The notes under the pieces were generated by a model. That model ran no database searches. It was not told where the DNA came from and saw only the letters and a program-made list of their open reading frames with translations. From Escherichia coli (lineage in GTDB: Bacteria > Pseudomonadota > Gammaproteobacteria > Enterobacterales > Enterobacteriaceae): DNA of 64,000 nt. Below are positions 10,781 through 12,144 of the stretch, piece after piece; within the stretch, counting starts at the first letter, position 1, and every line of letters begins with the position of its first letter. Position numbers and translations under genes: made by a program. The DNA lies in NCBI RefSeq assembly GCF_011045215.1, contig NZ_CP049201.1, one strand, 5' to 3'.

Positions 10781-10796
10781 ACTTTTTCTCCTGTCA

Positions 10797-10822
10797 ATAA
10801 AAAAGGGCCTCTGTCGGCCCGT
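10797..10822 (-). terminator. terminator-like hairpin immediately upstream of the holin RBS
   Basis: gggcc-tctgtc-ggccc stem-loop followed on the minus strand by a T-run. Confidence 0.4.
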
Positions 10823-10856
10823 AAAAAAACACCCCGTCAAAGGCACCCGCAGATAC

Positions 10857-10900
10857 CTTTTGTGTGGTGTTATCTGGTGTTTTCTGGTGTGGTGTGTGCA
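10857..10900. repeat. GT-rich (TGGTGT)n-like degenerate repeat, CA-rich and G-poor on the transcribed minus strand
   Basis: Direct reading: ttttgtgtggtgttatctggtgttttctggtgtggtgtgtg. Confidence 0.6.
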
Positions 10901-10946
10901 GGACACAGATGTGAAAAAGGTCCGCTGGTACGAACCCTGTATATGG

Positions 10947-10975
10947 ATAAAAAAATGCCCGTCAGGAGACGGGCC
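10947..10975 (-). terminator. rho-independent terminator-like hairpin
   Basis: gcccgtc-agga-gacgggc stem-loop followed on the minus strand by a run of 7 T. Confidence 0.5.
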
Positions 10976-11277
10976 AGAGCATTCATCGTGTAGTAATAGA
11001 ATTATATTTATATATGGTCGCCACCAGAATGAGTCGTCAACCTACAAAGCCATCCTGGCTTACTGTACGTGTGCGCATGGAACAGGTAACGACTCATTCT
11101 GCTAACGACGTTTACAAGTAATAATCACATACCATTATGTAATACAAAAAAAAGCAGCACTGAAACTGTAACCGTTCAGATATTACAGCATGAAGAAAAA
11201 CAATAGTACCTACAAAGCTGTTCTCCGCGAAAATTCGCCAGTGCTGATAAAGCTATGCCTCGTTTGTTTTACAGGAG

Positions 11278-11349
11278 AGCGGGTAGCGGGAATCGAACCC
11301 GCATCATCAGCTTGGAAGGCTGAGATAATAACCATTATACGATACCCGC
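11278..11349 (-). tRNA. tRNA-Gly (anticodon UCC), phage-encoded, glyT-like, no encoded CCA
   Basis: Reverse complement reads GCGGGTATCGTATAATGG...CTTCCAA...GGTTCGATTCCCGCTACCCGCT: 7-bp acceptor stem, anticodon loop CTTCCAA, TψC loop TTCGATT. Confidence 0.8.
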
Positions 11350-11352
11350 ATA

Positions 11353-11428
11353 TGGTGCCGACTACCGGAATCGAACTGGTGACCTACTGATTACAAGTCA
11401 GTTGCTCTGCCTGCTGAGCTAAGTCGGC
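11353..11428 (-). tRNA. tRNA-Thr (anticodon UGU), phage-encoded, with CCA
   Basis: Reverse complement reads GCCGACTTAGCTCAGCAGG...anticodon loop CTTGTAA...GGTCACCAGTTCGATTCCGGTAGTCGGCACCA; one mismatch in the T-stem. Confidence 0.7.
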
Positions 11429-12036
11429 GTTGGTTCCTCGGGAGTGAGATGAGATGCCCCGATACATAATGTATCATTCCCTCGGAACCACAAAAATAAT
11501 ACTAATAAATAATCAGGATGCAATATTTACCAACTATGTAATTGTAAATTTGTTTGAATAAAAAAATTACTAAACACGCCATACCCCCCTAAAAAGGGGG
11601 TCGTAATAATATAAGTGATACTAAACATCACATTACTAAATACATTGTATTAAGCTGGCGACCCGATGCGTAATCCCTTGATATTAAAAACTCCAAACAA
11701 AATCAGAATGCCATCTAAATACACAAAAAGCTGGCTTCACACCACCCTGTATGTGAACGCAGAACTCATCACCCCACGCGCTTTCGCAGCCAGTACACAA
11801 CCTGTGTCAAACGCTGGCAGATGAACAATGAAACTGCCAGCACGGTCACCTATCTTAGTTCGCGTCTCGCATTCTGCTTGATAATAAGTTTCCCGTTCTT
11901 CTCTTATTGTGCATTTCTCAGTTTATCTGTCAGTAGCATTTTGACATACCAATAATTCCTGTCGAGAAAATCAGTGAGCTAAAAAACCGTATTCACAGCC
12001 TCGGGCACGTTTAACGTACCGCACCACTTTTCGGGC

Positions 12037-12062
12037 GTAAAAAAACCCGCATTAAGCGGGTT
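12037..12062 (-). terminator. rho-independent terminator just downstream of the Q-like gene (tR'-like)
   Basis: acccgc-ttaat-gcgggt stem-loop followed on the minus strand by 7 T; lies about 80 bp after the Q-like stop. Confidence 0.55.
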
Positions 12063-12144
12063 TTCAGGTGTCCATGTCTGCTATACGCCTCGTGATACAG
12101 CTTTACGAAGCGTACCAAAATTGAAGCAGTTTGTACGTAAAAAA

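Follow-up and report, generated by a model that had tools for sequence, protein, structure and literature searches.

A stretch of 64,000 nucleotides (nt) of Escherichia coli DNA (contig NZ_CP049201.1; hereafter the window, whose positions are used for all coordinates) contains, between a gene for a Q-type late antiterminator and a gene for a holin, a region at 10781-12144 that carries two transfer RNA (tRNA) genes, a series of terminator-like hairpins, and several other structured elements. The genes around it all lie on the minus strand, which is the late strand, with transcription running from high to low coordinates. An initial annotation, made from the letters of the sequence alone, had proposed a tRNA-bearing, structured, and largely non-coding island at this location, and analyses with ARAGORN and Rfam, along with folding and tests of open reading frames (ORFs), bear this out. 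The positions of the different features are collected in Table 1.

The boundaries of the region are well defined. On the upstream side the Q-like ORF ends in a TGA stop codon at 12147-12145. Its product matches the DUF1133 family PF06576 (E 7e-106) and the PHROG 753 family, ‘anti-termination protein Q-like’ (E 2e-78), and has 74-75% identity to the annotated q of phages Rac and Rac-SA53; the Phage_antitermQ family PF06530 was also matched, weakly, and comparison with the solved Q21 structure gave nothing significant (E 0.14). On the 3' side there are two holin genes (PHROGs 198 and 217), the first of which forms the boundary, and then a gene for a GH108-type endolysin. Elsewhere in the window, the antitoxin RNA RalA (26855-27033), FnrS (31343-31460), and McaS (34838-34933) were found at the Rfam gathering score, and a tyrosine integrase adjoins TtcA (513 bits), the integrase-ttcA stretch occupying 27354-29576. 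These three RNAs, together with an integrase beside TtcA, place a prophage at the Rac site in the E. coli chromosome, and it is a Rac-like, lambdoid prophage integrated at ttcA. Its late genes look intact, unlike those of the Rac prophage in K-12.

Directly beyond the Q stop codon there is a highly conserved block. Within four phages that have a DUF1133-type Q, the first ~60 nt are near-invariant and 12083-12134 are invariant; the pattern AAACTGCTTCAATT..G.TA.GCTTCG.AAAGCTGTATC.CGAGGCG is unchanged in all four, with differing flanks. The best hexamers in this block are TTGATT (12143-12148) and TTCAAT (12120-12125), separated by 17 nt, and the late promoter pR' and the site of Q loading are weakly inferred to lie here. 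The block leads into a predicted short RNA of ~78 nt with a folding energy of −26.6 kcal/mol (z −3.65). The hairpin at its 5' end shows one compensatory change, from U-A to C-G, among relatives, and its 3' end is formed by the putative terminator tR' (−15 kcal/mol), followed by seven uridines (U7), with the genes for holin, holin, and endolysin beyond. Sub-threshold Rfam matches over 12036-12113 were to Trp_leader, P9, and isrK, the last of these (RF01394) scoring 19.1 bits at 12040-12111 against a threshold of 50.

Between this block and the tRNA genes lies the AT-rich spacer that had been noted at the outset, with a GC content of 0.406 over 11429-12036 and a minimum of 0.31, compared with 0.494 for the whole window. 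From 12044 to 11942 the window can be aligned to the leader of relatives as far as the ATG of their 65-amino-acid (aa) winged-helix ORF, with 75-80% identity to phiP27 (15587-15686) and to Shiga toxin (Stx) 2a phages. In these phages the leader precedes the 65-aa ORF and a DNA methyltransferase gene. Matches to the region were found in 540 E. coli genomes, and most of the matches listed are to this leader stretch. The fate of the genes that follow can be read from an IMG/VR contig, L015, which has the leader, then the 65-aa ORF and a 354-aa methylase. Homology to L015 resumes from 11929, ~25 nt before the methylase stop codon; 1,413 bp of L015 lie between the points that abut in the window, where ~10 nt stand in their place. 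An orphan leader and an orphan methylase 3' end are both kept here, and therefore loss in this lineage is the economical explanation. On these alignments, the emptying of a first cargo position (slot 1) by deletion of a 1.41-kb module comprising the 65-aa ORF and the methyltransferase is demonstrable, and 11905-12038 of the AT-rich spacer can demonstrably be regarded as vestigial. The earlier suggestion that the spacer is a remnant of excised cargo is thus right for part of it, with the qualification that the cargo was a methylase module and not a toxin; alignment of the spacer to a disrupted coding gene, which had been named as an outcome that would speak against an RNA-only cargo, extends to the ~25 nt of the methylase 3' end only. 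In L015 itself, a gene for an OmpC/NmpC-like porin (974-2080) lies on the opposite strand at the expected position of Q, and late control may differ there.

The next part of the spacer is a block held in common with strain 52F4 and L015, in which substitutions have no 3-nt periodicity (14/14/13, p 0.98). It contains an element, B2T, with a core of 41 nt (11730-11770) that is identical in three lineages that are otherwise ~82% identical, and the fold of B2T is shared by all three. Further on there is a G/C hairpin, at the position of which strain 52F4 has another hairpin, this one with a U-run.

The two tRNA genes proposed in the initial annotation are confirmed by ARAGORN and by Rfam, for which the tRNA threshold is 29 bits (scores in Table 1). 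The tRNA-Thr differs from K-12 thrU by two bases in the D-loop only, and in a relative it has compensatory changes in the anticodon stem. The tRNA-Gly differs from K-12 glyT by a compensatory change in the acceptor stem (6:67, C-G to U-A) and by two other bases. The compensatory changes in relatives show that these tRNA genes are under selection. The 3' end of the tRNA-Gly gene reads GCTCTCC instead of GCTCCA, with CUC after the discriminator base; the 2-nt insertion is also found in strain RM11911, and other cassettes retain CCA. The cassette may have its own promoter. The 145 nt on the 5' side of tRNA-Thr are 89-95% conserved with 52F4 and L015, and further upstream the spacer between TTTACA and TATTGC varies. 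Within the conserved part, TTGCAT (11518-11523) and TATTAT (11496-11501), 16 nt apart, form a candidate promoter, and a leader hairpin at 11431-11490 (z −3.0) stops 2 nt short of tRNA-Thr. A transcription start site belonging to the tRNAs themselves has been mapped in Stx phages (PMC7547250), and therefore an autonomous tRNA unit has precedent. In terms of codon usage, 28.7% of the Thr codons of prophage ORFs are ACA, compared with 15.4% in adjacent host ORFs (odds ratio 2.2, p 1.6e-6), and GGA and GGG together account for 41.5% in late ORFs compared with 31% in host ORFs. A role for the cassette in codon supply is thus supported for Thr, and more weakly for Gly.

Past the tRNA-Gly gene lies a branched RNA element, D1. 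Its closing helix pairs 11239-11245 with 11156-11162, and a run of eight uridines (U8) follows at 11146-11153. Across 11 diverse homologs 95.4% of cells are paired and compensatory change is seen in half of the pairs (11/22); none of 500 shuffles was equally good, and slid controls were 28-56% paired. A covariance model built on D1 finds one strong copy in each Gly cassette and no copy in the Stx, P27, or E2348/69 loci examined. The element has no match in Rfam. In one IMG/VR contig (L023) there is a second, weaker D1-like match at 13042-13137 (29.3 bits, E 1.6e-5), ~1.2 kb upstream of the main copy. Two further assignments were considered and rejected: D1 is not a tRNA or tRNA-like gene, with no ARAGORN call and no match to a tRNA covariance model even at E 5, and B2T, which the D1 model does not match, is not a duplicate of D1. 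Most simply, D1 would be the trailer of the tRNA transcript combined with a first terminator.

The second covarying element, D2, is built on a perfect inverted repeat that the initial annotation had reported; its 13-bp arms, 51 nt apart, are at 11025-11037 and 11089-11101. The 13-nt arms belong, as their core, to longer arms of 21 nt with 86% complementarity, and folding of the 178-nt unit that surrounds them gives z = −5.1. Two sequence families of D2 can be distinguished. In family A, to which the window belongs, the 13-bp core never varies, and variation is found in the apical 46-51 nt and the flanks. Family B is a second sequence family found at the same position in other cassettes, and it aligns to the D2 helix. 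With both families combined (11 sequences), the helix has 26 pairs, of which 95.6% are kept, with 34 compensatory cells, and 0 of 500 shuffles was as good. The late strand gives the more stable D2 helix in 12 of 14 homologs; the difference, which reaches 26 kcal/mol, comes from 6-8 G-U pairs.

The inverted repeat could instead act at the level of DNA: it might be a palindrome bound by a protein, form a cruciform, serve as a recombination site, or mark the two ends of a miniature transposon. Such roles would fit the invariance of the 13-bp arms in all family-A copies, while loop and flanks vary, and the nature of the region as a recombination mosaic. Between the families, however, the arms differ by compensatory substitutions, and a DNA palindrome would be symmetric, whereas here the G-U pairs favour one strand. 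D2 is therefore an RNA element of the late transcript and not a DNA palindrome. Furthermore, the arm sequence is single-copy in each cassette and is not a dispersed E. coli repeat; it occurs once in the window, on which ground a dispersed repeat or transposon was rejected, and transposition-like target duplications were not seen. An action at the level of DNA is thus very improbable. As an RNA, D2 would depend on read-through: family-B D2 starts within the U-run of D1, and therefore it has no promoter of its own. A search for such a promoter ended in rejection in family A also, there being no −35/−10 pair at a fixed distance across its three clades, and a promoter-like site on the plus strand (11111-11138) was set aside, as it falls in a 20-nt insertion that is absent from relatives. 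With 26 predicted pairs and the late strand favoured, D2 has the length expected of an RNase III hairpin (at least ~two turns of double-stranded RNA), and RNase III sites are known in the late leader of lambda (reference 49 within PMC7547250). By analogy, the simplest view of D2 is that of a hairpin in the late leader that serves processing or stability. D1 and D2 are, on the comparisons made here, unannotated RNA motifs, absent from Rfam and modestly novel.

Three terminator-like hairpins had been described in the region; hairpins of this type are indeed present, and the number was an undercount, with at least six on the late strand. The octamer GAUGAAUG and the terminator T2 that it adjoins are conserved in 14 distinct family-A homologs; family B does not conserve the octamer. 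The hairpin T3 is kept in 52F4 and in SerU-LTIIb, with base changes that preserve pairing. In general, the positions of T2, T3, and T5 are maintained, also where their sequences differ.

Beyond T3 lies the repeat that had been noted as GT-rich, and which is CA-rich on the transcribed strand (TRF period 10, 2.6 copies, 10865-10890). The copy number of its unit, ACACCAGAAA, varies among near-identical relatives, with one more than the window in L014 and two more in L017. The repeat stands at a junction at which relatives carry TerB and DUF3927 genes, and this junction is empty in the window and in 52F4. A second cargo position (slot 2), between T3 and the holin leader, is from this comparison also empty, with no TerB/DUF3927 module. 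The holin leader itself, of ~100 nt, is kept with 76-94% identity in 528 E. coli genomes and in phiP27, for which the value is 91%.

The capacity of the region to encode proteins was assessed with several approaches. The initial annotation stated that there is no ORF over 60 aa; four listed ORFs above this length do overlap the region (Table 1), and the underlying point stands, with no credible protein gene among them. PHROG gave no match for the two antisense ORFs (169 and 66 aa) or for three shorter spacer ORFs tested, and no ORF for a toxin or other protein cargo is supported between the tRNAs and the holin. The idea of an RNA-only cargo in the stx slot therefore holds in that this is the same Q-to-lysis slot and lacks protein cargo; it needs amending in that two slots are empty and the module lost was the methylase. 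Small protein genes might still be hidden in the spacer, such as those of 38 aa (10870-10986), 38 aa (11684-11800), or 52 aa (11666-11824). These ORFs exist and are partly retained in relatives through conservation of the DNA. The tested ORFs have no family match, however, and substitutions show no codon periodicity; start signals are TTG or absent, and the ORFs span terminator hairpins. In the ORF at 10870-10986, which runs across T2, every difference from the copy in RM11911 alters an amino acid, and in relatives the frame is shifted by changes in repeat copy number and U-run length. Hidden small proteins are thus very improbable.

Table 1. Features in and around the region between the Q-type gene and the holin gene. 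Positions are those of the window; U5 to U8 are runs of uridines.
Feature	Position	Strand	Description or basis
Q-type late antiterminator gene (DUF1133)	12145-12687	minus	Upstream boundary; PF06576, PHROG 753
Candidate late promoter pR' and Q-loading region	12083-12148	minus	Conserved block after Q stop; weak placement
Predicted short leader RNA, ~78 nt	12036-12113	minus	5' hairpin 12085-12113, then tR' 12039-12065 and U7
Vestigial leader	11942-12038	minus	Homologous to the stretch from tR' to the 65-aa winged-helix ORF of phiP27, Stx2a phages, L015
Deletion scar (~11930-11941) and ~25 nt of diverged DNA methyltransferase 3' end	11905-11941	minus	Comparison with L015
Non-coding block common to strain 52F4 and L015	11626-11904	minus	~82% identity; contains B2T
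Element B2T	11725-11793	minus	Closing helix enclosing three hairpins, then U5
G/C hairpin CCCCCU/AGGGGG	11575-11605	minus	No adjacent U-run
Candidate tRNA promoter and 60-nt leader hairpin	11431-11523	minus	Conservation; putative promoter
tRNA-Thr(UGU)	11353-11428	minus	ARAGORN tgt; Rfam RF00005, 69.8 bits; CCA encoded
tRNA-Gly(UCC)	11277-11349	minus	ARAGORN tcc; Rfam RF00005, 65.4 bits; 3' CCA not encoded
D1, branched RNA past tRNA-Gly	11143-11257	minus	7-bp closing helix, three hairpins, U8; covariation
D2, long RNA hairpin	11017-11109	minus	Inverted-repeat core, variable apical part; covariation
A/U-rich linker, GAUGAAUG (10980-10987), and terminator T2 (10957-10974) with U7	10949-11016	minus	Terminator scan
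Terminator-like hairpin T3, then U5	10912-10938	minus	−10.9 kcal/mol, z −3.6
CA-rich tandem repeat, ~10-nt unit	10860-10905	minus	At the empty TerB/DUF3927 slot
Holin leader with T4 and T5	10799-10870	minus	Folding, terminator scan
T4	10829-10870, U7 10823-10829	minus	Compound hairpin and U7
T5	10805-10820, U6 10799-10804	minus	Hairpin and U6
Shine-Dalgarno AGGAG (10788-10792) and holin ATG (10778-10780)	10778-10792	minus	Downstream boundary
Late-strand terminator-like hairpins, at least six	tR' 12039-12065; D1 with U8 ending 11146; T2 10957-10974; T3 10917-10938; T4 10823-10870; T5 10805-10820	minus	
ORF, 169 aa	10596-11105	plus	Antisense to holin
ORF, 66 aa	11190-11390	plus	Antisense to tRNAs
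GTG-extended holin ORF, >60 aa			Overlaps region
ORF, 61 aa			Out of frame across the end of Q

It had also been suggested that the spacer could encode a small RNA (sRNA). Conserved structured RNAs do exist in it; a known prophage sRNA was not found there by Rfam or BLAST, and no convincing promoter for D2 was identified. At gathering thresholds, Rfam finds only the two tRNAs in the region, and further matches at E ≤5 are sub-threshold. For example, AgvB (RF02702) scores 22.4 bits at 10950-10999 against a threshold of 56, and STnc100 (RF02076) scores 20 bits against 47, with 125 model positions deleted; both of these matches lie at T2, and it is mainly the terminator that accounts for them. 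As a positive control, STnc100 was recovered in prophage PP5 of E2348/69 with 123.6 bits. PasA, PasC, PasD1, and PasD2, taken from E2348/69 at their published coordinates, gave no BLAST match in the region.

These results bear on the possibility that the island is the source of at least one regulatory sRNA with targets in trans among the mRNAs or sRNAs of the lysogenic host. Possible sRNAs would be the RNA from pR' to tR', the D1 trailer once cut from the tRNA precursor, similar to 3'ETS-leuZ, and a processed RNA comprising D2, the linker, and T2, in which GAUGAAUG could be the seed. The layout is that of an sRNA, a 5' hairpin being followed by an A/U-rich linker and then by a terminator with U7; the structure is conserved with covariation, an invariant octamer adjoins T2, there is the weak resemblance to AgvB and STnc100, and the same slot yields StxS, AgvB/AsxR, PasD/STnc100, and IsrK. 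Against this, every Rfam score is far under threshold and the Pas sRNAs have no match; D2 lacks a conserved promoter, its family-B hairpin starting in the D1 U-run, and the octamer is not kept in family B. This possibility is compatible with the region being a late-operon leader, and we regard it as a tentative one, with the odds clearly against it.

The distribution of the region among genomes is uneven. The full arrangement, at 98-99% identity, is present in 3 of 5,426 complete E. coli genomes, all of them bovine isolates, along with a few IMG/VR contigs. Parts of the region differ widely in distribution, and therefore a mosaic map could be drawn. The family-B module of D1 and D2, which is unannotated, occurs in 382 of the 5,426 genomes, APEC O1 among them, and the family-A version in ~13 genomes and in no deposited phage. 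Among deposited phage genomes none has the 10900-11276 segment, and a metagenome scan added three contigs only. Related cassettes are found in various states of decay: RM11911 (L008) has only tRNA-Gly, RM8082 (L011) has no tRNA, and contigs of the L022 type (L022-L024) have sequence that, read by eye, resembles tRNA-Gly. D1 is kept in RM11911 and the L022-type contigs and is reduced to a fragment (17 bits) in RM8082, and all of them keep D2 and T2.

The rarity of the full-length arrangement, along with the vestigial portion at 11905-12038, could suggest that the spacer is neutral debris of cargo loss with no function beyond the tRNAs. The structured elements speak against such a view. Lineages with less than 70% identity have many compensatory changes in D1 and D2 that preserve the pairing, the holin leader is retained in 528 genomes, and the positions of T2, T3, and T5 persist despite sequence differences. 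It is unlikely that the spacer as a whole is debris.

Taken together, these observations point to a late-operon leader, belonging to a Rac-like lambdoid prophage, that is in a minimal, ‘RNA-only’ state, with both protein-cargo positions empty; we give this reading, which is drawn from sequence comparisons, a probability of about 0.75. The way in which such a leader might work can be outlined, where the steps that concern the promoter and short RNA, insulation, and D1 and D2 combine the sequence with established lambdoid biology. The promoter just past Q would fire constitutively, and in the lysogen its transcript would stop at tR' to give the ~78-nt RNA, a presumed counterpart of lambda 6S RNA, StxS, and IsrK. 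Once Q is made, a termination-resistant RNA polymerase would read through tR', the tRNA cassette, and five more intrinsic terminators into the genes for holin, holin, and endolysin. The tRNA cassette, which comes from host thrU and glyT, likely has its own promoter and leader hairpin, and would supply decoders of ACA and GGA/GGG, codons used more by the prophage than by neighbouring host genes. The stack of terminators past the tRNAs would insulate the lethal lysis genes from the tRNA promoter and from stray transcription, and Q-modified polymerase would pass through it. Within this scheme D1 would serve as the 3' trailer of the tRNAs and as the first terminator, and the 26-bp hairpin of D2 would act as a late-strand RNA, its most plausible role being in processing by RNase III or in 5'-end stability.

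Several observations weigh against parts of this late-leader reading. A scan of the post-Q block for promoters did not reach the 9/12 threshold and made no call; the pR' hexamers are poor, with TTCAAT lacking the −11 A, and the candidate tRNA promoter matches consensus at 8 of 12 positions only. The tRNA-Gly without an encoded CCA needs trimming and CCA addition, or may be decaying, and enrichment of GGA alone is not significant (p 0.08). The closing helix of D1 spans ~80 nt, which is atypical of an efficient intrinsic terminator. Finally, the invariance of the D2 core in family A exceeds what pairing needs, and a sequence-specific partner may exist.

The locus is of an ordinary, well-understood kind in an unusual cargo-free state, and its novelty lies in the scar of the deletion, in the architecture of two slots, and in the two unannotated RNA motifs supported by covariation. 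It shows base by base how the cargo slot between Q and the lysis genes of lambdoid phages is built and emptied. There are two independent cargo positions, one for the methylase module and one for TerB/DUF3927 or a toxin, with the host-copied thrU/glyT cassette between them, and the terminator stack must prevent the lethal lysis genes from being activated by a tRNA unit that is transcribed constitutively. Hundreds of E. coli genomes have D1 and D2 alongside the tRNA cassette, and the two motifs are cheap to test. A bolder proposal is that D1, D2, and perhaps B2T are undescribed families of structured RNA belonging to phage Thr/Gly tRNA cassettes (~7% of E. coli genomes), transcribed independently of Q from the tRNA promoter in the lysogen, and processed to stable RNAs that act in trans on host RNAs or as specific RNase P/E/III signals, through which the stability of the lysis mRNA would be tied to the release of the tRNAs. 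This is speculative, and we think it doubtful. If D1 and D2 are processing signals or regulatory RNAs, they would join the prophage RNAs of this slot, StxS, AgvB/AsxR, the Pas sRNAs, and IsrK.

Upstream of Q, the gene order DUF1367, DUF1364, DUF1133 recurs in several relatives. In the window, an ORF similar to DUF1364/HNH endonucleases (12684-12974, PHROG 131) comes before Q, and is itself preceded by an ORF at 12974-13585, the homolog of which in strain C5 (NZ_CP010122), itself a lysogen of this prophage, is annotated as DUF1367 and which has no NCBIfam match here.

There are similarities with, and differences from, several known systems. The RNA known as 3'ETS-leuZ derives from a tRNA 3' external transcribed spacer and is released from the tRNA precursor. 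D1 resembles it in form only, as a structured trailer lying after the last tRNA and ahead of a U-run, with no sequence relation. The resemblance of D2 to the RNase III sites of the lambda late leader is likewise one of form, with no sequence relation. As in the lambdoid late control region, with its Q, pR', qut, tR', and 6S-type RNA, there is a strong intrinsic terminator within ~110 nt of Q, a structured short RNA is predicted, and the lysis genes lie 3' on the same strand; unlike it, the Q here is of the DUF1133 type and not of the lambda family (PF03589). Constitutive short RNAs from pR' are known in lambda, 21, phi80, 82, P22, and Stx phages, in the last case StxS (PMC7547250). StxS has 258 nt, compared with the ~78 nt predicted here. 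IsrK adjoins the Q-like gene of Gifsy-1, directly after it (PMC4825925), and the RNA predicted here, on which the isrK model scores ~19 bits, is likewise directly past a Q-like gene. Gifsy-1 was not among the tblastn matches of this Q, and therefore the analogy with IsrK is one of position only.

Other sRNAs are found in the same neighbourhood, just upstream of the holin, and have the same design of a short RNA with a terminator: AgvB/AsxR (RF02702/3), STnc100/PasD, and PasA/PasC. The moron slot downstream of pR' carries sRNAs, of which AsxR, the mapped member of AgvB/AsxR, is antisense to the late (stx2AB) transcript, in convergent sRNA pairs (PMC4104026), whereas the AgvB-like match here is on the late strand.

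A further comparison is with the moron slot of the Stx and P27 phages, which runs through Q, a small ORF, a methylase, the tRNAs ileZ/argN/argO, stx, and a holin. The tRNAs differ, those in the window being Thr(UGU) and Gly(UCC), from host thrU and glyT; the window is without toxin, methylase, or TerB/DUF3927, and D1 and D2 are absent from the Stx/P27 loci examined. The synteny expected from the initial annotation was recovered in phiP27 and in a Stx2a phage, where Q, methylase, tRNAs, stx, and holin follow in order. tR' and the next 100 nt are homologous to the corresponding sequence of phiP27 and Stx2a phages (75-80%), and position, gene order, and the holin leader are shared, as is the placing of rare-codon tRNAs upstream of the lysis genes.

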